Source of the DNA: Octopus vulgaris
Taxonomy: Eukaryota
Length of the DNA: 64,000 nt
Assembly (NCBI GenBank): GCA_951406725.2
Contig: OX597816.1
Location: 140,120,001 to 140,184,000, forward strand
Reading direction: 5' to 3'
Shown here piece after piece: positions 1 through 53,359 of the stretch (positions are counted from its first letter, which is position 1; every line of letters starts with the position of its first letter). The translations under genes and the position numbers were made by a program. Under the pieces are notes generated by a model that worked only from the letters and a program-made list of their open reading frames with translations, made no database searches and was not told the origin of the DNA.

Positions 1-535
1 ACATACACGTACGCATACATATAATAAATATATACACACACACACATAACATACATACACAATGTATACATATATATACACGCAATGCACATACATGTAT
101 TCATGCATATATAGCACACCTACAATATACATATATACAATGCACACATACACACACATATATACACTTAATTGTACACATACATATACAATACACATAC
201 ATACAATATACATATACACAATGCGCATGCAAATAATGTACATGTTTATACACACATAAACATGCAAATAAATATACACACACACACATACACACACACA
301 CATATATACACATATATATATATATATATACACACATACATACATACATACATGCACATACATATATTTTTTCACACACATACACATATATATATATATA
401 TATAAAAAATTCACCCCCCCCCACACACAAATTACAAACCTATAGCGTACACACTCAAATATATCTCTACATGCCGCACACACACACAAAACAAAGTACT
501 AACATATACACACATACCATGCATATACACACACA

Positions 536-570
<35 letters not shown>

Positions 571-697
571 AAAACAAATACACATGTAAATACATACATA
601 CGTACACAATGCTCACACACACACACACACACACATACACACACACCCGCACACAGTGCACACACACACACATATATACACACGTGCACACACACAT

Positions 698-747
<50 letters not shown>

Positions 748-799
748 CACACACATACACACACATATATATACACCCGCGCACACACACACACAACGT

Positions 800-831
<32 letters not shown>

Positions 832-1029
832 CACACACACACAACACTCACACACATACATCACCTATATATATATAATGCATGCGTGTGCATGCCACGT
901 ATGTGTGCGGTCAATGCCCGCTAGTGTGTCCTATGCGTGCCGATGCGCGCATGTGCCCGCCCGCACGATATGCTGTGAGCGTGCGCGCGTCCCTGTGTGC
1001 TTGCTCTGCATGTGTTTCCAGGGGGTATG

Positions 1030-2442
1030 TTAGAGTATGTTTAGTTGTGGTCTGTATTTTTGAATAAGATTACTTTCCTTATTTATTCGTGTTTGGTCTG
1101 TGGTGTTGTCCGAGCATTGGTATAGTGGGAAGACTAAGAATTTGGGGGACTTATTGTGTGCACAAAGGTCTAAGTGTCCACTTAGTGGTATCTGTCTTGT
1201 GGAGGGGTCCCTCAGTTGTTGTCGGTGAACTGTCATTCTGTCTCTGAGGGTAAGGCTCGTTTGCCCTATGTAGTCTTCGTGGCATCCTTCACACCTTATG
1301 ACGTAGAGTAAATTTTTTGATGCGCACGTGAAATTATTTTTTATGATGAATGTGTGTCCCGAGTGGAACTTGTACGATGATCCCTCAATGAGGTGGATGC
1401 AGGTATTGCAGTTGGGGCGACCACATTTTTTTATGTTGGGCGGTGGGTTTGTGTTGTGTAATTTTGCGTTGGTGAGGAGGTTTTTTAGGGATTTAGGTTG
1501 TCTCTTACTTTTTATTATGTTATGAGTTGCCAGTATTTTTTTCAGGCGTGGGTCTTGATTTAGTTGTGGAATGTTGTTGTATATAATAGTGTAAGCTTAT
1601 GCATTCCTTGGGTTGTGTGTTGAGAGATAAGGGAGGCTATTGACTGTACTGTGGATGTGTTTGGGTTTTCGAAGGTCTTGAATGTTGATTGATTTGGCCC
1701 GTTCTATTCCGTTGTCTACTAGTGATGCCGGGTAATGTCTTTCGAGAAGAATTGCCCTTAGTTCCCGGAGTCTTCTATTTCGTGTTGTGTCATTTGAGAC
1801 AATAGTGCAGATTCTTCTCGCTAGGTTGAAGGGGATATTTGTCTTTGTGTGTTTTGGGTGATTGGAGGTGAATAGAAGGTATTGTTTAGAGTCAGTGGGT
1901 TTGTAATGGATGTCAGTTTCAATGTTGACGCCTTTTTTAATGATTAGGATGTCAAGAAAAGGGAGTTGGTCCTGACTATATTCCATTGTGAATTGAATGT
2001 TGTTATTTACACTGTTGATAAGGTTTTTGAAGTCTATAAGTTGGTCGAGTGTGTGGGACCATAGGATGAGGCAATCATCTAAGTAGCGTTTCCAGTTCTC
2101 CAACAGGTATTTGTGGAAAGACTGGCCGTACTTATATTTGGATTTTTCATAGATATGTGATTCCAGGTAGGCCATCACCAGGTTTGCATAGGTAGGTGCA
2201 ACTTTCGTACCCATTGCAGTTCCTGAGACCTGTCTGTAAGTGTTGTTGTGGAAATACATGAAGTTGTTTTGCAGAATAAATTTGAGGCCCTCAATTATGA
2301 ATTCTTTTTTAATTCTTTCCGGGATCTCATTGGGATATTTATCCAGCCAGAATTTAATGGCTTCCAGTCCAAATTCATGTGGGATTGTGAGTGTAAAGAT
2401 TAATAACATCAAAAGAAACGATTAAGGTGTCTTTATCGGCAT
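1030..2442 (-). pseudogene. Penelope-like retroelement (Neptune-type) RT plus C-terminal GIY-YIG endonuclease; 5'-truncated, with one frameshift and one premature stop
   Basis: Translation gives DTLIVSFDVINLY (frameshift near 2388), then GTAMGTKVAPTYANLVM, WKRYLDDC, LPFLDI, KPTD. Reading through the TAA at 1597-1599 gives a CGRPNC.TC linker, LYVIRCEGCHEDYIGQT...RMTVH...H and KE..LI..Y.P.LN. Confidence 0.92.
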
Positions 2443-3353
2443 GTTTCTTTTGATGTTATTAATCTTTACACCACTAATCCCAAACACATCCACAGTACAG
2501 TCAATAGCCTCCCTTATCTCTCAACACACAACCCAAGGAATGCATAAGCTTACACTATTATATACAACAACATTCCACAACTAAATCAAGACCCACGCCT
2601 GAAAAAAATACTGGCAGCTCATAACATAATAAAAAGTAAGAGACAACCTAAATCCCTAAAAAACCTCCTCACCAACGCAAAATTACACAACACAAACCCA
2701 CCGCCCACCATAAAAAAATGTGGTCGCCCCAACTGCAAGACCTGCATCCACCTCATTGAGGGATCATCGTACAAGTTCCACTCGGGACACACATTCATCA
2801 TAAAAAATAATTTCACGTGCGCATCAAAAAATTTACTCTACGTCATAAGGTGTGAAGGATGCCACGAAGACTACATAGGGCAAACGAGCCTTACCCTCAG
2901 AGACAGAATGACAGTTCACCGACAACAACTGAGGGACCCCTCCACAAGACAGATACCACTAAGTGGACACTTAGACCTTTGTGCACACAATAAGTCCCCC
3001 AAATTCTTAGTCTTCCCACTATACCAATGCTCGGACAACACCACAGACCAAACACGAATAAATAAGGAAAGTAATCTTATTCAAAAATACAGACCACAAC
3101 TAAACATACTCTAACATACCCCCTGGAAACACATGCAGAGCAAGCACACAGGGACGCGCGCACGCTCACAGCATATCGTGCGGGCGGGCACATGCGCGCA
3201 TCGGCACGCATAGGACACACTAGCGGGCATTGACCGCACACATACGTGGCATGCACACGCATGCATTATATATATATAGGTGATGTATGTGTGTGAGTGT
3301 TGTGTGTGTGTGTGTGAGTGTGCACGTTGTGTGTGTGTGTGTGCGCGTGTGTT

Positions 3354-3467
<114 letters not shown>

Positions 3468-3577
3468 CACGTGTGTATATATGTGTGTGTGTGTGTGCAC
3501 TGTGTGCGGGTGTGTGTGTATGTGTGTGTGTGTGTGTGAGCATTGTGTACGTATGTATGTATTTACATATGTATTTG

Positions 3578-3628
<51 letters not shown>

Positions 3629-4431
3629 TGTGTGTGTATATGCATGGTATGTGTGTATATGTTAGTACTTTGTTTGTGTGTGTGTGCGGCATGTAGAGAT
3701 ATATTTGAGTGTGTACGCTATAGGTTTGTAATTTGTGTGTGTGGGGGGGGTGAATTTTTTATATATATATATATGTATGTGTATGTGTGTGAAAAAATAT
3801 ATGTATGTGCATGTATGTATGTATGTATGTGTGTATATATATATATATATATGTGTATATATATGTGTGTGTGTGTATGTGTGTGTGTGTATATTTATTT
3901 GCTTGTTTATGTGTGTATAAACATGTACATTATTTGCATGCGCATTGTGTATATGTATATTGTATGTATGTGTATTGTATATGTATGTGTACAATTAAGT
4001 GTATATATGTGTGTGTATGTGTGCATTGTATATATGTATATTGTAGGTGTGCTATATATGCATGAATACATGTATGTGTGCATTGCGTGTATATATATGT
4101 ATACATTGTGTATGTATGTTATGTGTGTGTGTGTATATATTTATTATATGTATGCGTACGTGTATGTGTATGCGTTGTATGTATGTGTATTGTGTGTATA
4201 TGTGGTACATCTATGTATGTGTATGTAAACACTATTTATATGTATATGTGTATATATATGTATATGCATTGTCTATATATATATATTATATGTATGTACT
4301 GCGTATGTATATTGCATGCATATATTGTGTATGTATATTACTTACATGCTGTATGTGTGTATTGTATGTGTGTATATATATGCTAGGTGTATTTGTGTGA
4401 TATTTATATTATGTATGTATGTGTGCGTGTG

Positions 4432-12582: not shown

Positions 12583-15152
12583 ATGATTTCTCTACCAATC
12601 ACCAACACAAATTCCACGCAAACTAAGAACTTTAATGACGAACTGTTTATCCTTACAGGACAAGCTTTTTATGAAATAAGGATTCAACAACATCAGCACG
12701 ACTCAAGTAATTTCTCTTTGAATTTTTTTCATAACATCATGGTAGAGAAAAGAATATTTCGTGGTGCGACGTGTGGAAATTATTCTTTAGAAGAAAAGCA
12801 AGCAATTGCTATCGTGGTGAACAAATGCAAAGAGGAGTATGATTATGAATTAGAGCGAATGAAAGGGAAAGCTCATTGGGATGCTAAAAGGATTCCATTT
12901 CCCAGACACCCTGGAACAGGGATATCTCGAAAAAAACAAGTTCGTTTGTTTTACTCGAATTTGGCCGGTGTCAAAAACTCTGATCGACTATTTGATTCTG
13001 CTGTGAAACGCAAGTATTTGAAAGGCGAAGTTGACAGCACTGAAAAACATCTAAAGAAACATTTCAGAGTCGCTAGAGGAGGTCGTAAAGTAAAAGCACC
13101 TGACGTGAGAGATGCCTGGTTTGAATGGTTTGTGGATGTTGGAACATCGCTGCATGCGAGATTTATCATAAGCTCTTTTCCTATTACAGGCTAAGAAATT
13201 CTATGAGGAGTGGATTTGCCAACACCCAGATACACCAACTGAAAAAAAGGCTTTGGTTTTCAAAAAGATGGATGAAAGGTTGGCAAAAAGAGTATGGAAT
13301 ATCACTGAAATTTCCAAACAAACGCATTTCAATCTCCAAAGAACTATGTGTTAATCGCATTCAGGATTATTTGAAGAACATATGAAGCGTGCGTCGTTAT
13401 TTCCTTCAAGATACGTTCGTCAAAGAAAACCATCATGTGTCTAGGGAACGTATCCGTGTTCACCCAGGTTAGCAATGATACCAAAACCAATCTTATCCCA
13501 GAGTTTGCATTTAAAGTAACTGGAAAAAGACCACCTCTACTAAATGCCCTGCGTACAATGAAATATCAATGGTCTCCTAAAGGCTCTTACAGATTAAAAC
13601 AACTGCTCCGTACTATTGAAAACCATCCAAGCTGATTCAATATATTTTCCCATGCAAACTTTGCTATTTATGTGCTCGATGATTACATATTGCATTTGAT
13701 GCCGAAGGTGAGAGACGCTCTCTGGAAAAGCGGTTATGTGTCAGTCATCGTCGGCAATGGTACCAGATTTGTTCAAGTTAACGACACACACTTGCACAAA
13801 CAACTGAAAGCAAAATATCGCGAAATAGAGAAAGTAAAGATACTGGAAAAATTAATTCAAACTCCGAATAAAGTACCCACGCCCAGTCGATCCGAGATGA
13901 TGCAGATGCTACATCAAGCACATGCAGATTGCAAGATTGATGTCAAAGCTGCTTTCAAGTCGACGTGGACCATAAGCACTTTCGATGGCTCTGAAGATGG
14001 CTCTGGTATCAGACTGAATCATGCACCTCGTCGGTCCGTCGATGCGAGAGTTTCGTCTAGAGATGATGTCAAAACCCTGCCCAAATATTTTTCAGAGTCA
14101 TTAAAACTTAATTCCACCGAAAGGGGTCAAGCGTGCAAACAATATTGAAGGCTCAGAACTATTTGATGACGACAGCATTGAGGAAAAAGCTGCTGAAAGT
14201 AAGTCGGAAGGTGAAGCGAGCCATCTGGCAATCTTTTGGAGGTCATTAACTCATCTGAAGAAATCCCCATGGAGGTTTCGCTGAAGCCAAAGCACGGTCG
14301 ACCAAACATGATGGCGGGAAGCTCTATTTCTCTTGTAGGAATCAGCAGTGATAATCAGGTTAATAAAGATGACCTGTTCCTTGAAAAAATACAGGTGTTG
14401 GATGAAAACGAGACCTGTACACTTTTCTTGCCATATCGAAGCAAACTCATGTCAACTGTCAGTGAATCTCGAGGATCCGTAAAGAAGTGGATATCGAAAC
14501 CGAGAAACCTGCAGAAGGACAGCGACGAAAAATCATGAGTCTATCATTTTATACCTATTTACAGAGTACTATGTTTTATTATGTATAGTATAATATATAC
14601 TGCAAGTTCACGAAACGGCAATTATACTCTTTTCAATGTGTTTTTTTTTCTTTTTAAGACGTGTTGCTTGTATCAATGTCTGTTTAGTTCACAGCATTAA
14701 AAAAAAATCCCATAATTACCATAATTGACAAATGTCTTATTTTTATTATACAAATGTCTATCTTAACTAAAGATAAACGTCTGAACGTCTGAAGCACACG
14801 TATATGCTAATTTTACTTGCTTCTTGTTAATTTCTTTTGCTTCGTACTGTTTCCCACCCACCCTTTTATTCCAACTCACCTGCTTCTATGAATTTAAGCA
14901 AATGTCCAACCCGCCCGCTTATTCCAACAACCCCACCTATTATTTAGGACCCAAGAGTAAATAACTGGTTTTAAAAAAATCAAGAGAGGCAACCTAGAAA
15001 ATTTTAAAATTTTATGCAGTTACTACTATACAATTACTGCTTTTCCACCCCTCACCTCCTGTTTATTCCAGCCCACCCGCTTATATGAATTAAAGCAAAT
15101 GTTCAACCCACCTGCTTATTCCATCCACCCCTATTATTTGGACCCGAGAGTA
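12583..15152 (+). mobile_element. pogo/Tigger-like DNA transposon: transposase pseudogene (12583-14538) with a duplicated 3' terminus
   Basis: CENP-B-type HTH (AWFEWF...; FSKRWMKGWQKEYGISL) and DDE_1 motifs (LDDY.LH, QVNDTHLHKQLK) lie across frameshifts. Terminal blocks ending ggaccc(a/g)agagta occur at ~14959 and ~15152. Confidence 0.75.
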
Positions 15153-15208: not shown

Positions 15209-16442
15209 CACAGACATCACAAAAGTAAATAGACACCCCATAAAACATCATTTTATGTTTATTCTAACTTGTAAAGGTTTATATTTTTATGTTTCAGGTT
15301 CTGTATGTGACTGTTTAATCATACCATGTATTAAAGAAGCTTTGGAACCGTCTGAATTTCAAAGAATCTGTATTGTGGGTCATTCTGAAGGTGGACATGG
15401 CGAAAAATCGAAGAAAACTTGGGGATCCCACTTTCTACTGTTAATAGAGTGATTGTGCAATTCCCCAGAGAGGAGAAGGAATCCGCATCACCTCGTACAG
15501 ATCAACCAGGGCCCTCTAACAGGATCCTTCTCTTTGTTAAGAGAAGTGTGGAGGATACTCCTTATTGCAAAGCCTCTGACATAGCAGAACAGGTTGATGT
15601 CAGTCCCAGAACAGCTGTCAGGTATCTCCACAAACTTGGTTACTATGGCAGGACAGCAAGAAGGAAGCCACTTCTTCGACCAGCTAACATCAAGCGAGAA
15701 AAGATTGAGCCAGTGAGATGTTGGAGAGGCCACTAGCATTTTGGGACACTGTCATATTATTTGATGAATCCAGATTTGTTGTATTTCCTGACAGTGGTAG
15801 AGTGTGGGTTTGGAGACTGTAATCAAGAATTTGACGCGAAAAGGTTGCAGCCAGCAATGAAACACGGCAACTATTCTCTGATAGTCTGGGAAGCAACTCT
15901 GGAGCAATGATTGATCAGAGTTGGTGGAGTGTGAGGGAAACATAAACTAAGATAAACATGTGTCCATATTGCAGAAAGGACTCCTTCCAGTCTTCCCCAG
16001 TGGTGAAATGATTAAAGAAAACTCTTTATTTATGGGAGACAGGGCTCCTTGTCACACGGCTAAAATGACCCAAGACTAGTTGGAAGAGAATGGTATTAAA
16101 AAGCTTCCATGGCCAAACCAGTCACCAGATGTAAACCCTATTGAACACCTCTAGGGCATAATGGACAAGAAACTTCATAAAAAGATCGAGAAAGTATCTT
16201 CAAAGACAGATCTTTGGAGATTACTGCATGAAACTTGGCAAGAAAATCCGCAAGAGAATATTTCGTCATCTGATCAGTAACATGCCTAATAGGGTCTTTG
16301 CATTGAAAAATGCAAAGGGTATGTCTACTAAATATTAAACATTCACATTATAACAATTAATAAATAATTTGAATGTATATTTTCAGAGTGAAATAAATTT
16401 TAATGATTATAAGGATGTCTATTTACTTCCGTCATGTCTCTG
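15209..16442 (+). mobile_element. Tc1 DNA transposon, full length, with decayed transposase
   Basis: TIRs are cacagacatcacaaaagtaaatagacaccc and ggatgtctatttacttccgtcatgtctctg. Motifs: STV.RV, GYYGRTARRKPLL, FDESRF, D.APCH, WPNQSPDVNPIEHL. Confidence 0.9.
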
Positions 16443-22523: not shown

Positions 22524-22619
22524 TTAAACTGAAAATTTTGGTAATTTTAACCAATCGTATACGTCATGTATTTGTGTAGATCATTAAGATATGTGCGTGC
22601 GGGCGCGTGTATGTGTGTC

Positions 22620-24030
22620 TGTGCGTCTTGTGTCATTGCACAGCTTTGGTTGAGAAACGTTGCACAGAAGTATGATTGGAGCGCCTATTTTCAATGGAAG
22701 GCAATGAGGAGGAGCTCCTGGTGGCTGCACTGAGTTTAAGAACTCAACCAGGTTATTGACTATTTCCGACTCATCTACAACAGAGTCTATAGATTTGTAG
22801 GTATGGTAAAAGTTTCGCGAATCTTTCATTTGAATTATTCACAGTAACGTTCTTTGGTGCTATGGTTACTCTTTCGCTCTACCAAGCAGCATTTGTGTAA
22901 TTTGAAATTATACTTGGGAAAAACTTTTTCAATAAGTTCCTCAAACGAACTGACTTGATGGATTCAAGTCACCTTCATGATTGATGTCTAGCCTTCCTTC
23001 AAGTTGTAAGATAGTATGGGCAAGTTGTTCCGACATGCAAGTGTGCCCTCATATTTGTAGAAAGCTCTAACATTTTGATACGTTTCCATAAAATAGAAGA
23101 TTTCAAGCATGCTTTCAGTTCATCCACCTTTCCCCCGAGAATCACTGGCAAAGTTTGTCTGAAATCACCTGAAAGCATTACTGTCACACCTTGCATCAAA
23201 CAATTGGGATTGCGCAAATCCTGCAACATTCTATTTACAGCTTCAACTGATTTTTATGGGACACTGTAGCTTCGTCCCATATGATCAAAGAACATTTCAT
23301 GAGAACTTGAGCTGAAGAACTTTTACTAATATTGCAGACAGGTTCATCATTTGAAGTTAGATTGGATGGCAGCTTGAATGCTACGTGAGCTGTTCGATCT
23401 CCTGGGAGTACAGTCGCTGCAATTCCAGAGCTCGCTACAGCTAACCCATTTCCCTTTTCTGCCAGATTTTGGCTAGCACTAAATTTGTAACAAAAGTATT
23501 TCCAGTTCCTCCTGGTGCGTCTAAAAAATATAATCTTTCTTATGTATCACTTGGTCAATGATTGTAGTATATGCAAAAGTTTCGGGACATTTTCTTCAAG
23601 GAATCTTGTAAATGAATCATTATTGTATGAAGTTCCTCGCAAAACTTCTGTGACCAAATTATTCATGTCATTTCGATGAGTTTCACGTAAGCCAAACTTG
23701 CTGAGCTCCTCTCCTCCCATTGAGACAACGCGATCTTCAATATCAACCAATGTAGAATTATGTCATCGTTGAATGCTATTTCTCTCTCAGGGAATCTTAA
23801 TCGTGCTTGATATTCGTAGTCTTCTAATAAATCATTCTTATATTTGTGCCACAACGCTAATGGATTCCTTACTTCACAATTCAGGTGAAAAATTGCAAAA
23901 AGATCTCTCAAAGAAATAGGTGTGTGTAACACTGAAGCCTCAGCCATTGTCCTGTCCTATTGATTGTCATCTAACAAATTTAAGGCTAAACCGGCTTCTT
24001 TATAAGTACAAACAGTTTGACCATCAATCT
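22620..24030 (-). pseudogene. Helitron Rep/Hel fragment (PIF1-family helicase), multiply disrupted
   Basis: Motifs LRDLFAI...C....P..LW, FLDAPGGTG, A.SSGIAAT.L.G.RTAH..FKLP, IIWDEA, LSGDFRQTLPVI, L..NMR, PPH.L.LK.GAPIILL.N. Confidence 0.92.
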
Positions 24031-24769: not shown

Positions 24770-26280
24770 TAAACCACAACAGATTCTCTTCCAGAGTTTT
24801 CTAGCAAATGGCAAACTGTCAAGCAAACTGAAGGAGGAAATATTATGCCCAATCCAAAGAAGGAAGCAGAGGAGATACCGAAAATTATAGGCCTGTCTCT
24901 CTGACTTCACACGTCAGAAAAGTGATAGAACGAATAGTTAGAAGGAAGCTAATCGTATTCCTTGAAGAAAACGACTTACTGAGTGATACCCAATGCGGTT
25001 TTCAAACAGGTAGGAGCTGTCTGACACAACTCCTACAACACTGTGACTGGGTGTTGACGCAATTACTCGATTACTCAAATGCGAACGTAATATACCTTGA
25101 CTTTGCAAGACCTTTTGATAAAGTTGATCATGATATGACATGCCGCAAACTGCGCGATTTTGGCATAGCAGGAACACTTGGAGAGTGGTTACATGGCTTT
25201 CTGAAAGATAGCAGTCAGGCACTGGTGGCCAATGGAGCGACCTCAAAGGAAACACAAATAATGAGCTATATTCCACAGGGCACTGTCTTTTTGTAGTGGC
25301 CCTCTCAGATATGCCTTCAGCTGCCCGGATACCCACACTTGCTAGCTTCGCCGACGATACGAAAGTCTCGCAGAAAATACAGAATCCTCGCGATTTTACT
25401 TGCAGCAGGAGTTGGACGCAATTTACAGATATGCTGAAGACAATAACATGCAGCTTAATGCTGGAAAATTCCAGGCCCTGCGCTACCAGCACCCAGAACT
25501 GAACGAAAAACTTACAGGGTACACTGATCCAGTGGGGATTACAATCCCAGAAACTAAATCAGTGCGTGACCTGTGTATCGACATGAGTGATGATACCTCT
25601 TTCCAAGTGCACATTACCAAGATGGCGACAAAGTGCAGACGGCTGCCTTAGATCTTGAGAACCTCGTAAACTAGAGAGAAGGAAACCATGATGGTCCTCT
25701 GGAGGATATTCGTCCTCAGCCGCCTGAACTACTGCTCCCAACTATGGTCACCCCACAATGTGAAACTAACAGCAGACATTGAAGCAATCCAGCGAATCTT
25801 CACAAAAAAGATCGTCTCATTGCAACAGCTCAGCTACTGGGAAAGGCTAAAACAACTAAAACTCTACTCCATGGAGCGAAGGCGTGAAAGATATGCAGTG
25901 ATATACATCAGGAAGATCCTGGAAGGGATTGTGCTAAATTTTGGTATTAAAAGCTACACAGATGCCAGAATGGGTCACCACTGCACAGTGCCAAAAATCT
26001 CAACAATACCGTCATGCTTCAGGACCAATTACTGCAACAGCCTGGTTTTCAAGGGCCTACAGCTTTTTAATATTCTCCCAAAGAGCCTGAGGGACCTACA
26101 CAAAGGGAATGTAGGTGTTTTCAAAACAAAACTGGATCTCTTCCTGTCGAGAGTCCTAGATGAACTCCCTTATTGACCAAATTCCACACATCAGAGGAGG
26201 CTCTCAATAATAATAGTGTAGCGAAACGGTGGTGACCCAGCATGACCTCTACTTTGAGCTGAAACCGATAAACATAAAGT
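24770..26280 (+). mobile_element. CR1-type LINE, 5'-truncated RT with 3' UTR, decayed
   Basis: Motifs NYRP.SLTS, Q.GF..GRSCLTQLL, YLDFA..FDKVDH, PQG, FADDTK, L.YCSQLWSP, Y.ERLK.L.LYS.E.RR.R. Confidence 0.93.
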
Positions 26281-46946: not shown

Positions 46947-48359
46947 TGCGGGAGCTACAATACTAGGTCATGCAAAGACCAAAAATATAACAATCGCAAT
47001 GACGAATGTAATAACGCCGATAGAACACAAACCAATAGCATCGCCTATAGCAATAACAACAGTGACAATAGCAAGGATTCCTTCGCTGAAATAATCTTCT
47101 TGAGGGAACTATACAGGCTCTTCCTATAGGATAAGCGAACAAAATTAGAAGTCGTCACCAGATTTTGTGAAACTGAAAGTAGAATACAGGGCTTGTGCAT
47201 ACTAGAAAGACTGTTATATATCGCTGTATGAGATTAACAACACGTCAACTAGAGACGGTCACAACTCACGAGCAGAACGAATTATCTACGATATATTGCA
47301 GGATATCGAATATATATCAAGGGTGACATAGTTCAGCGGGGTTGAATTTCTATTTAAGACTGAGACTTTCACAATGCAACATTCGTTTGTCACAACATGG
47401 ACTTCACTCTCCTCCTCCATCTTATTTGGGAAGAAAGGCAGTAAAGGAAACATTATCAGGATTGCTGGTGGATATTAGCATGCATAGTGATGGAAGGGAG
47501 TTAAGTGAACTAGGCGTGAAAACTGGGTTGGGGCCAAGACTGTAGTCTGAGCATAAGGAGAGGACTGTTGACCTCATATCCCTGCCGATTGGGACGAAAT
47601 TACTTGTAATTTTGGAGGGCAGGAGACCAAGATATATATACACACAAACATACATACTAAATTATTATATAGATGCAAATTAAGTGGCGACAAAAGTATA
47701 TCATACAATGGTGCTGTGAATAAAGAGAACTTGACCAGACAGCACTGAGTTAAATATAGACAACACCCTGTTATTGATTGCATGCATACATATCAGTTAA
47801 AGGGAATATTGGGACAACATTCCCTGAAAACATCCACTAGATGTAAATACAACAAGTCCGCTACAAATGTTTGATACAAGAGAAAAATCATGTCCATCCA
47901 TAGGTCATAGTGGTCAGCTACCCTGAAGATGTAAATACCGGTGAGAAGAAGAATGTTTATGAACGACTGCCTCGAATCTGCAGTTTCTCAATCCTGATTA
48001 TATAAAAACATGAAGTATGATTATTTAAAAGATTTGAGATATCTTACGATCGTCTCATGATTGTATTATCCTTTGAAATGAAATCCAAAATTGATAATCA
48101 TTATTAAGTAGAGAAAAGGATGAATTTCCGTGTAGTTAATCGAATGAGAGATATGCCATTTAAAAACGTATGATAAAGAGGTTGTTTAAAAAATTACTGG
48201 CATAGATATGCATTAGTACAATCTTGGGCTAAAAGTTTTGAAGAAATAATATAGATCCGTGGTAAAATCCCTTGTAGCAATCCATAATGGCTGTGTGTAG
48301 ATAGAAGTCCCATAAAACCATTCTCTTCAATATGTAATCCACAAATGCAGAAAATAAAA

Positions 48360-49660
48360 GTGATTTCTTTATTACCCACAAGGGGCGAACAGAGGAAATA
48401 ACACAAAATGTGTGGGGACAAAAAGCGAATGAAAGAAAAATGAAATGAAAATGAAAAGATGAATGAAGCCTTTCGGCCCCCACCTTAAACGCAATCAAAT
48501 TCCATCTGCGTTTTTCTTTGTGTCGGTGGGGTGTCGGGAGGTTTGGCGTCTATAGGGAGAGGATGGAGCAAAGTGGGTGTAGGTCGACATCCACAGGATG
48601 TACCTTTTCTTCTTTTTCTATTTTTCCTTCAGACCGTTTCCCAATCATTCTCTTCGTTGTTTGCTCTTTCATCAGCACTTAAGTTTTCTTTTGTTGGCGC
48701 TGGAGGTGTGACTTCCTCCCTGCTCATAGGCCCTTCTTGGGTTTTTTTAGGTGGCGGAGGACAGAACGTTTTAATGTGGCCTTTTAGGCCACACTCATAC
48801 CAACGCGGGGTTCTGCCCTCCACTCTCTGACCCTGATTATCAAATCTTCTATAGATATAGTTTCTATTATATTTTCAAGGTTCTCCGGAGCCGCTTGGAT
48901 AATTATATCCAGGCTCTGCTCTTGCCAATACTTATGAGCTGTTTTTGTGGCTTGGAGGACCACTATCTTATCTTCAATGCCCAGCAGTATGGCAGCTATT
49001 AGCCAGGCTACGACAATCTCTGGTGGTACATCTACCCTAATCCTGGAAGCACGTCTCCTAAGGTATATTAGTAGAAGTACCACTTCTGTCTTTAAAGGGG
49101 CTGTCGAGTGTAACCTGGCAGTAGCTACCTTTCGGAAGCGCGCCTCCACTGTTCCGAACATCCTTTCTCTGGCAAGGTACTAAATCCCTTGCCAGATTGG
49201 CTTCAAGGCGTTTTCTACTTGATTGGTCGTCATTATTTCGATTTTCTTTGTTTTCATGGAGTACGTTCTATATATTATAGTTTTCTCCTTGGTTGCTTTC
49301 AAAATTTCTTAGGGAGGGAATACCTTTACGTCGCACCCCTCCCTACAAAATATGTTCTTATATTTACTCAGTTTGGTTAGTTCGACTTCGTTGCTGTTGC
49401 TCTTGGCGACAGCCGCAAAATCTCTTTTCTTTACCTACTCCTCCATTACTTCGACAGACCTCAGAAGACGTAAGCTCCGAGGAGGTGAGGCTTTCATACT
49501 CCATCGTTAATACTTGTGCTCCCCACATCTTCGAAGGGGGAAAGCGTCGACAGATTGCTATAAGGCAGTAAAACAAGTGTAACAAAGTGTTTTAAAAAAC
49601 TCGAAACGATTTTAACAATAAATGATTCAACAAAATAACGCTCACGTACGTCAATGCTTA
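48360..49660 (-). mobile_element. ORF1-only (HAL1-like) retroelement, unit 1 (divergent subfamily, disrupted ORF)
   Basis: 5' agcattgacgtacgtgagcgttattttgttgaatc; zinc knuckle VEGRTPRWYECGLKGHIKTFCP; 3' gccccttgtgggtaataaagaaat; no RT or endonuclease. Confidence 0.8.
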
Positions 49661-51321
49661 ATTATTTACTACCCACTAGGGGCGACATAGAGGGGACACT
49701 ACAAAACATTGGGGGCACAGAACATAACAATCAAAATTATGGAAAATGAATTTTTAAATGAAAATGATAATATGAAAGTGATGCTAACGGCCCCATCCGT
49801 TAGCATCGCTTACCTGTCCTTTGGTTTTTACTTCCACACAAATATTCCTCTTTCAGTTCCAATCACGAAACCATTCATCTCCATTCTTACTTCAAAATAC
49901 TCCTCCAATTCTCTCACGGTTTCTTCAATCATTCTCGTCTCTTTCACTTCCCAATTCTCCCTTTCACACTTTGTCATAAAATCATCTATTCTCTCCTTTT
50001 CAATCACTGCATACCTGATCTGACCTATTTCATACCATTTATACTCCTCCATTGCCTTTTTAATTTATTTCTTTCCTGTGAAAATTAAAATATTTGGCCT
50101 GGGTTCGTTTTTTCCGCCCTGATTATGCGTGTCCTTTTTTTGTTTTCTTGTTGGAGGGGAGCGGGTGGGTTCACTGTCTGCAGGGAGTGGGTGGGACTCA
50201 GAGGGTGTGGGTTGTGTTGGGATGGGTTGGGGTTCCATACTGTTCAACTTTCTCCCTCTCTTTCTTTTTTTCTTTTCCTCCACCCATTCGTTTTTGGCCT
50301 CCTCTCCTGTTGTTTCACACTCCACTTCTTCTTTATTTTCTTCTTCTCCTTGTGTCTCCATAACAGTTTCCTTTGGTGGGAGAGGACAGTAAGCTCTTAT
50401 GTGGCCCCTCAGGCCACATTTATAGCATCTTGGTGCTCTGCCCTCCACCCACACTCTCATGACAATGTTTCCCATATTAATGTTATCTGTCATTCCTTCA
50501 ATTGCACTCTCCTCCGCTTGAACACTCATTTCCAGCGTCTTTCCACGCCATCCTTCACTCTTTACAGTAGCCTGTAAGATGTCTACCTCTTCTTCGATGC
50601 CTTTTATAACTGCTGCGGTGACCCATTCGCCTTCTATGTGGGGGGGGGGGTATCCCCTCCGTCCTTATCTTTGTTGTTCTCTTATTCCTATACGTTGGTA
50701 GTAAATATACTTTTTCTGTCTTTAACGCCTTGGCTGCCATTCTTCTTGCCATACTTTTACTTCCATACTGTACCATTATCGTACCATATTCAATTCCTCT
50801 GACCACAAACACAATTTCCTCCTCCACTCTTCTTAAGTCCTCCTCTATGTCTTCCATCTTTACTGTTTCCACTCTTTTGTTATCTTTTACGAATGTTCTG
50901 TATTTTATGACTCTTTCTTCAAACCATTCGGTACGCTTTTCTGGCGGTAACAGTTTCACTTCGCCTCCCTCCTTCGTCATGTATGCTTGATAGCCTGGTA
51001 ACTTTTCCAGGTCTATCTTTTTTTCGTCTGTTTTTCTTGCTGCTCCCGCGTACGTTTTACCAACCTTAACGTCTATTTTCTTTACGGCATCAGTCAACTC
51101 GTCCTCGGAGTTGATCGATACCTCCGATAGACTTTCGAAAAGTCTTTCTTCGTCCATCTCTCCCATTAGGGAGGGGCAGTCCATCTCGTTTTATCTGTCT
51201 CAATACAGACAGACAACGGCCGACAGCCCAACAACAGTGTAACAAGGTCGCGCGAAAAATCCGTATAACAAAACGTACAATAAACGATTCAACAAAATAA
51301 CGCTCACGTACGTCAATGCTG
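49661..51321 (-). mobile_element. ORF1-only (HAL1-like) retroelement, unit 2; ORF 51184-49828 (~450 codons) with one frameshift (G run ~50640) and one stop (50065)
   Basis: CCHC knuckle CYKCGLRGHIRAYC; same 5' motif as unit 1; 3' gtcccctctatgtcgcccctagtgggtagtaaataat. Confidence 0.85.
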
Positions 51322-53221
51322 ATTTATTTACTACCCACTAGGGGCGACATAGAGGGGACACTACAAAACATTGGGGACATAGAACATAGCAATTAAAATT
51401 ATGGAAAATGAATTTTTAAATGAAAAATGATAATATGAAAGTGATGCTAACGGCCCCATCCGTTAGCATCACTTACCTGTCCTTTGGTTTTCACTTCCAC
51501 ATAAATATTCCACGTTCACTTCCAATAATAAAACCATTCATCTCCATTCTTACTTCAAAATACTCCTCCATATGTCCCATGGTTTCTTCACTCATTCTCG
51601 TCTCTTTCACCTCCCAATTCTCCCTTTCACACTTTGTCATAAACTCATCCATTCTCTCCTTTTCAATCACTGCATACCTGGTCTCACATATTTCATACCA
51701 ATTACACTACTCCATTGCCCCTTCAACCTCCCTCCCTCCTGTCAAAGTTAAAATGTTTGGCCTGGGCTCGTCCTCCGCGTCCCGTCTCTGCGCGTCCCCC
51801 CTTTGCTTTCTTGTTGGAGGGGAGCGGGTGGGCTCACTGTCTGCAGGGAGTGGGTGGGACTCAGAGGGTGTGGGCGGTGTTGGGGTGAGTTGGGGGCTCA
51901 ACATTGTTCAACCCTCTCCCTCTCTTTCCCCCCTTTCCCTCCTCCACCCACTCGTTCCGGGCCTCCCCCTCTGCGCCTTCACACTCCTCCTCCTTACCTT
52001 CCTCCTCCCTCTGCGTCTCCACAACAGTGGTGGGGGAGGGCAGTAAGCTCGTATGTGGCCCCTCAGGCCACACTTATAGCACCTTGGTGCTCTGCCCTCC
52101 ACCCATACTCTCATGGCAACACTTCCCATGTCAATATTATCTGCTACTCCCTCAATTGCCCCCCTCCTCCGCCCGAATACTCATTCCCAGCGTCCCTCCA
52201 TGCCATCCTTCACTTCTTACAGCAGCCCGCAACATGTCCACCTTCTCCTCCATGTCCTTTACAACCGCTGCCGCGACCCACTCGCCCTCCCTGTGGAGGG
52301 GGGCATCCCCTCCACCCCCATCCCTGCTGTTCTCCCACTGAAACACGTTGGTAGCAAATATACCTCTTCCGTCTTCAACGCCTTGGCCGCCATTCCTCCT
52401 GCCACACTTCCACTTCCGAACCGTACCATCATCGAACCGTACTCAATTCCTCCGACCAAGGCGGCGAGCTGGCAGAAACGTTAGCACGCCGGGCGAAATG
52501 CGTAGCCGTATTTCGTCTGTCGTTACGTTCCGAGTTCAAATTCCGCCGAGGTCGACTTTGCCTTTCATCCTTTCGGGGTCGATAAATTAAGTACCAGTTG
52601 CGTACTGGGGTCGATGTAATCGATTTAATCCCTTTGTCTGTCCTCGTTTGTCCCCTCTGTGTTTAGCCCCTTGTGGGTAGTTAAGAAATCAATTCCTCCG
52701 ACCACGAACACAACTTCCTCCCCCACTCCTCCCAACGCCTCCTCTATGTCTTCCATCTCCACCGCTTCCACTCCCTTGCTATCCTTCACGAATGTTCTGC
52801 ATTTCATGACTCCTTCTTCAAACCACTCGGTACGCCCCCCTCCTGGCGGTAACAGTTTCACCCCGCCTCCCTCCTTCGTCACACAAGCTTGCTAGCCCGG
52901 CAACTCTTCCAGGTCCATCTCTCTATCTACCGTTCCTCCTGCAGCTCCCGCGCACGTTCCACCAACCTCCACGTCTACCCTCTTTACGACATCAATCAGC
53001 TCGTCCTCAGAGGTCGACACCTCCGATAGACATTCGAAAAGTCCTTCTTCGTCCATCCCACCCATTAGGGGGGGGCAGTCCATCTCCCTTTGTCTGTCTC
53101 AACACAGACAGACAACGGCCGACAGCCCAACAACAGTGCAACAAGGTCGCGCGAAAAATCCGTATAACAAAACGTACAATAAACGATTCAGCAAAATAAC
53201 ACTCACGTACGTCAATGCTGC
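51322..53221 (-). mobile_element. ORF1-only (HAL1-like) retroelement, unit 3; A-to-G hypermutated and interrupted by a SINE
   Basis: Colinear with unit 2. Differences are dominated by T>C on the plus strand (A>G in sense). Confidence 0.88.
52459..52688 (+). mobile_element. SINE family B, young copy with 16-bp TSD
   Basis: TSD tcaattcctccgacca at 52443-52458 and 52689-52704; A/B boxes present. The central gcctttcatcctttcggggtcgataaattaagtaccag resembles the MetaSINE core domain (from memory). Confidence 0.93.
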
Positions 53222-53359
53222 GCAGAAAATAAAATTTTTGCTTTTATAGTTATATATACAAAAACTGGAAGATATCATTAATATATTTTATGCAAATGTA
53301 AAAATAGCCGTGTACTGACCCAATATAGAGTAAATTAATGTATTATATTTAAATCATTA

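Follow-up and report, generated by a model that had tools for sequence, protein, structure and literature searches.

Transfer of ADAR-edited RNA into DNA has been described in cultured human cells, where 3 of 235 pseudogene insertions made by L1 carried ADAR-type clusters, located in inverted Alus (PMC11702581). As in the octopus copy described here (unit 3), edited RNA was converted to DNA by LINE machinery, leaving clustered substitutions of one type. However, the cases in that study are somatic, experimental and confined to inverted Alus in the 3′ UTRs of host mRNAs, whereas unit 3 is natural, lies in the germline, occurs across organism labels, is edited in its own ORF and has no inverted repeat nearby. 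The avian retroviruses RAV and ALV, as summarized in PMC12925331, are similar in that nearly half of A became G in the reverse-transcribed genome, but they are viruses edited in LTR or inverted-repeat regions, and fixation in the host germline is not described in that summary. LTR retrotransposons edited by APOBEC3 likewise carry heritable, strand-biased and context-dependent changes that leave dead copies, although these are G>A changes that arise through cytosine deamination of cDNA in LTR elements of vertebrates (PMC4866542). Published DNA-editing screens have mainly addressed G>A in vertebrate LTR elements; in that of PMC4866542, which covered LTR elements and not LINEs, other mismatch types were reported as very rare and invertebrates as being at noise level. 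Transcriptome hyper-editing clusters also combine dense A>G changes in repeats with depletion of upstream G, and octopus is among the highest, but these clusters are reported from RNA only, and the invertebrate cluster is enriched for downstream A, unlike unit 3 (28% per opportunity) (PMC5625713). For human L1, restriction by ADAR1 was reported to be independent of editing, with no editing in more than 2.5 kb of L1 RNA (PMC5224506). Other reports supplied background or added nothing further (PMC5974252, PMC3185545, PMC7186786, PMC10760644, PMC9148063, and PMC6015446). The literature covered on editing, HAL1, and cephalopod repeats, with few subscription papers included, contained no LINE-type copy with ADAR hyper-editing fixed in the germline. 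Precedents for the mechanism come from cultured human cells and from retroviruses.

Unit 3 is one of three tandem retroelement copies in the stretch of 64,000 nt of Octopus vulgaris DNA that was analyzed (the window; Table 1), and it is a real and unusually clean germline fossil, probably of ADAR hyper-editing. Editing is dense over 51721-52980, and the tract is interrupted by a 230-bp SINE that the initial annotation of this DNA had not described. Unit 2 adjoins unit 3 and is 83-85% identical to it. A 45-bp 5′ piece of the unit-1 family precedes each unit and the array is bounded by a 13-bp outer duplication, an arrangement that fits successive insertions at one target. The 45-bp repeat likely represents the target that was duplicated when units 2 and 3 inserted, and it is longer than usual, as family copies elsewhere have target duplications of 17-18 bp (by eye). 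Only one derived state in the unit 3 body is common to unit 2 alone, whereas 7, 4, and 4 are common to individual dispersed copies; unit 3 is therefore an independent insertion and not a tandem duplicate of unit 2. The 5′ UTR of unit 3 is common to unit 2, and its unedited portion may be partly target-derived.

Table 1. Features of the three-unit array and of a second skewed copy; positions refer to the window unless a locus is named.
Feature	Position	Strand	Remarks
Unit 3: dead copy (frameshifts, one stop) of a non-LTR retroelement encoding ORF1 only (zinc knuckle)	51322..53220	-	
A>G tract within unit 3	51715..53105	-	134/421 sense-strand A changed; 5′ G avoided
Unedited 3′ part of unit 3	51322..51714	-	3/115 A changed; final ~33 nt = tail in common with autonomous APE+RT LINE
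SINE, later insertion into unit 3, unedited	52459..52688	+	Absent from orthologous contigs of runs X1, X2, X6
Left copy of 16-bp SINE target-site duplication	52443..52458	+	Contains edited base 52453
Right copy of 16-bp SINE target-site duplication	52689..52704	+	Contains same edited base (52699)
45-bp segment = 5′ end of unit-1 family	53176..53220	-	3 occurrences in all (others 51277-51321, 49615-49659)
Unit 2: unedited copy, same subfamily as unit 3	49660..51321	-	Private A>G 6/448, G>A 7/292
Unit 1: related ORF1-like family copy, similar 3′ tail	48363..49659	-	Closest relatives 81% identical
13-bp outer target-site duplication of three-unit array, one copy	53222..53234	.	Other copy 48347-48359
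L173: young 5′-truncated LINE copy, (TG)n tail	L173:3642-4111; G000:C27, ~12875640-12876110	-	

Over their whole length and on the sense strand, units 2 and 3 are separated by 158 A>G, 17 G>A, 16 T>C, and 13 C>T differences. The initial annotation had detected this bias in a 145-nt hand alignment of the two units, with 22 differences, 19 of them T>C on the plus strand and none C>T, and repetition of the alignment gave exactly these counts. Changes were polarized against the per-column majority of five relatives, with columns lacking a 75% majority among at least three relatives dropped. By this reference, the tract has A>G at 134/421 sites, compared to G>A at 5/287, T>C at 6/161, and C>T at 5/178. 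Other changes at A are few (A>T 4 and A>C 2), so that 134 of 140 (96%) are A>G, and an APOBEC-type signature of sense-strand G>A is absent from unit 3. The 160 A/G differences between the units resolve into 134 derived in unit 3, 13 derived in unit 2, and 13 that are ambiguous. Where all relatives agree, private A>G changes number 109 in unit 3 and 6 in unit 2, beside 20 and 21 changes of other kinds; as the frequencies of other private changes are alike in the two units (20/1160 in unit 3, 17/1146 in unit 2), age does not explain the A>G excess.

The skew is confined to the element, as the adjoining unit 2 and the SINE are spared, and the fading of the bias toward both ends that had been noted was found again, being gone in the 3′ part (3/115 A) and weak in the 5′ UTR (1/16 A in the first 100 nt). 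Unit 3 as a query gave 42 matches (40 scored of 654 candidates), with no second copy in the G state and a best other match of 80%, although distant copies have G as well at 15 of the 109 unit-3 G sites. In a set of 40 distinct family pieces, skew is limited to the two halves of unit 3, and in 22,205 alignments within 101 sequences every skewed group includes unit 3, apart from two microsatellite cases.

ADARs favor a 5′ neighbor in the order U/A > C > G. The edited fraction in unit 3 follows this order, with 29/50 (58%) after U, 71/152 (47%) after A, 14/59 (24%) after C, and 8/121 (7%) after G, and 44% of A not preceded by G are edited. The difference between 5′ G and the other neighbors is strong (p=7.8e-15), and CA was changed 3.6 times more than GA (p=0.003). 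The neighbors counted by hand in the initial annotation (A 11, U 5, C 2, and G 1 at the 19 sites; 1/21 GA against 18/40 other adenosines) were recovered without change. Ordinary A>G changes in five older copies served as a control and lack the G penalty (5′ G, 11-15 of ~130 vs 16-18 of ~156). Depletion of upstream G is reported as an ADAR mark common to animals (PMC5625713). Differences by 3′ neighbor are non-significant (G 42/109, or 39%; U 19/54; A 43/153, or 28%; C 17/62), with a weak preference for 3′ G over the other 3′ neighbors (42/109 vs 79/269, or 29%, p=0.09). The edits are blind to coding effect, as synonymous (35/109, 32%) and non-synonymous (80/253, 32%) sites changed equally and 70% of the edits are non-synonymous, whereas older subfamilies diverge at synonymous to non-synonymous ratios of 32:8, 33:8, and 31:11; this suggests one unselected burst. 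The most frequent replacements (R>G 11, K>G 10, I>M 7, E>G 6, T>A 6, K>E 5, N>S 5, K>R 4, I>V 4, and Y>C 4) include those named in the initial annotation.

Words of the tract are present in 11 of 24 listed sequencing runs. The contig from run X1 (organism A; 787 nt, 8 other letters) has the edited state at 88/89 covered sites, that from X2 (organism B; 705 nt, 17 other letters) at 82/82, and that from X6 (organism C; 504 nt, 10 other letters) at 61/62; the differences listed above a threshold of 20% include one reverted site each for X1 and X6. Run X3 (organism A), which may be the source of the assembly, covers two parts with 63 edited sites and 3 other letters. The contigs of X1, X2, and X6 each join 52442 directly to 52689 and lack the SINE, and both copies of the 16-bp target duplication of the SINE contain the edited base. 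Editing thus predates the SINE and the split of organisms A, B, and C, and the presence of edits without the SINE under three organism labels implies that the edits are old, reside in the germline, and do not stem from assembly error.

Most likely, the edits were made on RNA that was copied back into the germline genome and then inherited, and unit 3 very probably derives from a sense RNA that was hyper-edited by ADAR and reverse-transcribed into germline DNA by a partner LINE. A sense transcript of the ORF1-only element would have paired over ~1.2 kb with a complementary RNA, and ADAR, the presumed enzyme, would have edited about one third of all A in the paired transcript (44% of those without 5′ G), leaving the 3′ ~400 nt unedited. 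The partner LINE, which has the same 3′ tail, could have supplied endonuclease and reverse transcriptase and copied the edited RNA into the germline at the 5′ end of a related element already resident there, with inosine read as G. Dead on arrival in this scheme, the copy later gained the SINE and passed to three related organisms. Editing at the stage of the sense RNA, ahead of reverse transcription, would explain the strand, the neighbor context, the confinement to one copy, and the neutrality of the changes. The genome has adenosine-deaminase (A_deamin) domains at four loci, a domain family that also covers ADAT and ADAD. As for the putative duplex partner, neither the window nor the 10-kb surroundings of four close relatives contained an inverted copy of the element, no host exon that could be a source of antisense transcript was found among 79 scanned of 147 candidate frames, and the unedited RNA itself folds into short local hairpins only. 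Deletion-type copies were rejected as the antisense partner, since the edits run ~80 nt beyond the deletion start. The failure of these searches to find a partner counts against the origin of unit 3 as an ADAR-edited retrocopy, as do the sharp 3′ edge of the tract, the weak preference for 3′ G, the mosaic look of the relatives, and the non-significant 5′ G penalty in L173 (below). Template switching at the 3′ boundary was also considered, and the relatives of unit 3 look mosaic.

Deamination of the DNA itself by ADAR after insertion, in a hybrid of the sense DNA strand of the element with an antisense transcript, would yield the same neighbor context, and ADARs are reported to edit DNA within RNA:DNA hybrids (PMC7955049, PMC12925331). 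Moreover, a short sense-strand T>C cluster in another copy (L088, 8 in 72 nt) shows that clusters are not strictly one-stranded. This origin is nevertheless very unlikely, as the tract is confined to one unit and leaves the closely similar unit 2 untouched, no unedited allele appears in any of the four runs, and ADAR1p110 is described as requiring A-C mismatches, without significant editing of fully matched hybrids (PMC7955049). The specificity for one strand and one insertion would also suit error-prone second-strand synthesis at insertion, with G placed opposite T by pol eta or pol iota or by a reverse transcriptase working from a skewed dNTP pool. Pol eta has a WA motif, similar to the U/A preference seen here, and makes many A>T and A>C errors. 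The almost pure A>G spectrum at A is unlike that of pol eta, CA was changed 3.6 times more than GA, no first-strand U>C excess accompanies the changes (6/161), and 32% over 1.2 kb far exceeds known error rates; the chance that a polymerase made the tract is slightly smaller still.

It is highly improbable that unit 3 belongs to a G-rich subfamily, that unit 2 was instead mutated from G to A, or that GC-biased gene conversion produced the difference. The 13 differences that polarize to unit 2 and the 15 G sites shared with distant copies agree with such histories, but 134 differences polarize to unit 3, no second G-rich copy is among the 42 matches (40 of 654 candidates scored), and the edits are predominantly non-synonymous, while conversion should have been symmetrical between strands, in conflict with the scarcity of T>C. 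Sequencing artifacts can produce mismatch clusters (PMC2873906), and purine miscalls or RNA-derived reads might be suspected in a tract of this kind. Such an artifact has an almost negligible chance, because the edits recur in contigs of four runs from four studies and three organism labels with other differences of 1-2.4%, three studies are still left without X3, and the SINE target site duplicates an edited base. Editing of the sense RNA by ADAR before its reverse transcription remains the preferred origin of unit 3.

The family of units 2 and 3 is dispersed, with 43 matches (40 scored of 180 candidates). The family encodes one ORF1-like frame with a weak CCHC knuckle and no reverse transcriptase of its own; at ten 10-kb loci a single CCHC-bearing frame is followed by the tail, and reverse transcriptase occurs only in separate neighbors. 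One neighboring LINE has APE, RVT_1, and zf-RVT domains, and zf-RVT suggests an L1/Tx1 likeness. The last ~28-33 nt of the element match 12 copies of the APE+RT LINE at 88-96%, which makes this LINE, 12 copies of which end in the ~30-nt tail, the likely mobilizer. HAL1 (half-L1) elements are likewise non-autonomous, ORF1-only, and LINE-mobilized, but HAL1 by definition derives from mammalian L1, and the present element is likened to it by layout and not by clade (PMC5753468). One short 3′ tail is common to the SINE at 52459-52688 (also L113-L133), two ORF1-only families, and the APE+RT LINE, and these tail-sharing elements stack in tandem at the 5′ ends of one another. Splice-acceptor-like and donor-like sites (window 50075 and 49815, minus strand) surround the final ~260 nt of the unit 2 ORF region, and in one copy (L010:863-1451) unit-2 position 804 runs directly into 1248 at the acceptor-like site, as if spliced before retrotransposition. 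Unit-2 positions ~1187-1501 are missing in many copies (L002, L017, L019, L022, L025, and L028), with a short direct repeat at the bounds. An older subfamily has ~99% identical copies arranged head-to-head ~1 kb apart (L032:1494-6697 and other C28 loci); they are a possible source of fold-back dsRNA, yet are themselves unedited.

In a 60-nt cluster scan covering 118 pieces (159,576 bp), the flags fell on unit 3, on L173, and on a single T>C cluster in an old copy (L088), with no G>A or C>T clusters. L173 is 470 bp long and has 11 of 20 A changed to G within 42 nt at its 5′ end, along with two other changes there, whereas its 3′ ~410 nt are near-perfect (2 substitutions). One of these G was required by the search motif; the remaining 10 of 19 A would be expected with p=9e-16 before correction at a rate of 1%. 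The 5′ G penalty is non-significant (3/9 vs 8/11), and comparison ruled out old subfamilies as the source of the changes. Judging from its sequence, L173 is probably a second ADAR-edited retrocopy, from a different LINE family. The copy breaks off 56 nt into its edited zone, and the distance from its last dense edit to the 3′ end is 415 nt, compared to 400 nt in unit 3; the common unedited 3′ ~400 nt is suggestive (n=2). The young family of L173, which we take to be CR1/L2-like, has bodies that are at least 99% identical. Two motif searches for this family gave 13 + 1 hits, of which 13 were fetched and only L173 is skewed, the other 12 being single changes or old relatives of 64-72% identity. 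A very young LINE family (L137-L161), with at least 40 copies ~100% identical over 1 kb, is probably still active.

ADAR-scarred copies are rare in the genome. In the APE+RT LINE, no G was found at one motif in 62 copies, with degenerate matching verified, and no A>G flag was raised among 41 pieces; none was raised among 30 SINE copies. A SINE motif needing three G had 2 matches against 1 for the mirror control, and no SINE copy was skewed over its whole length. Two further candidates were discarded: 25 A>G against 2 G>A in L094:2509-2719 reflect a (TA)n versus (TG)n microsatellite difference, with nothing above gathering for L094 in Rfam, and the 46 A>G of L140 lie in a microsatellite tail. 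LINE microsatellite tails are unpolarized (TG 45, CA 63). The T>C cluster mentioned above (L088 ~1960-2031; G000:C5:73.96 Mb) comprises 8 private changes within 72 nt, located in the T-rich 5′ UTR of an old copy from the unit-1 family, and may be due either to chance or to opposite-strand editing.

The reading of unit 3 in the initial annotation, ADAR-type editing of element RNA followed by reverse transcription in the germline, stands on all three points on which it could have failed: relatives have A at the edited sites, no other scored copy shares the G state, and the edited sequence occurs in independent DNA runs. The proposed anti-transposon defense finds no support here, since skewed copies are rare (1 copy in 40 family pieces; 0/62 LINE copies at one motif) and the restriction described in PMC5224506 is editing-independent. 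Unit 3 would preserve, in a form that can be dated, a single RNA molecule edited in an ancestral germ cell, and indicates that retroelement dsRNA in the germline was long and edited and that LINE machinery there was able to copy inosine-rich RNA. Screening LINE copies for A>G that avoids 5′ G could gauge the entry of RNA edits into genomes and could also address whether ADAR restricts non-LTR elements via editing, an effect not found for L1 in cell culture. It is possible, though doubtful, that ADAR-scarred LINE-type copies form a recurrent genome-wide class of perhaps hundreds per genome. Edits would then be kept off the last ~400 nt needed for priming, the duplexed or inosine-rich part would tend to stall reverse transcription, and ADAR with antisense RNA would act as an editing-linked germline brake on non-LTR elements and as a route for inherited RNA edits.

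The window also contains other mobile-element remains, among which no host exon was recognized. An inverted pair (96% over 1.7 kb) at 1-4167 consists of Penelope-like pieces with RT and GIY-YIG domains, and a Tc1/mariner transposase piece lies at 15389-15733, with a weak KAP NTPase match at 13636-14145. PIF1 helicase fragments (Helitron-like) occur at 22587-23546, and LINE RT remnants at 24832-25293.
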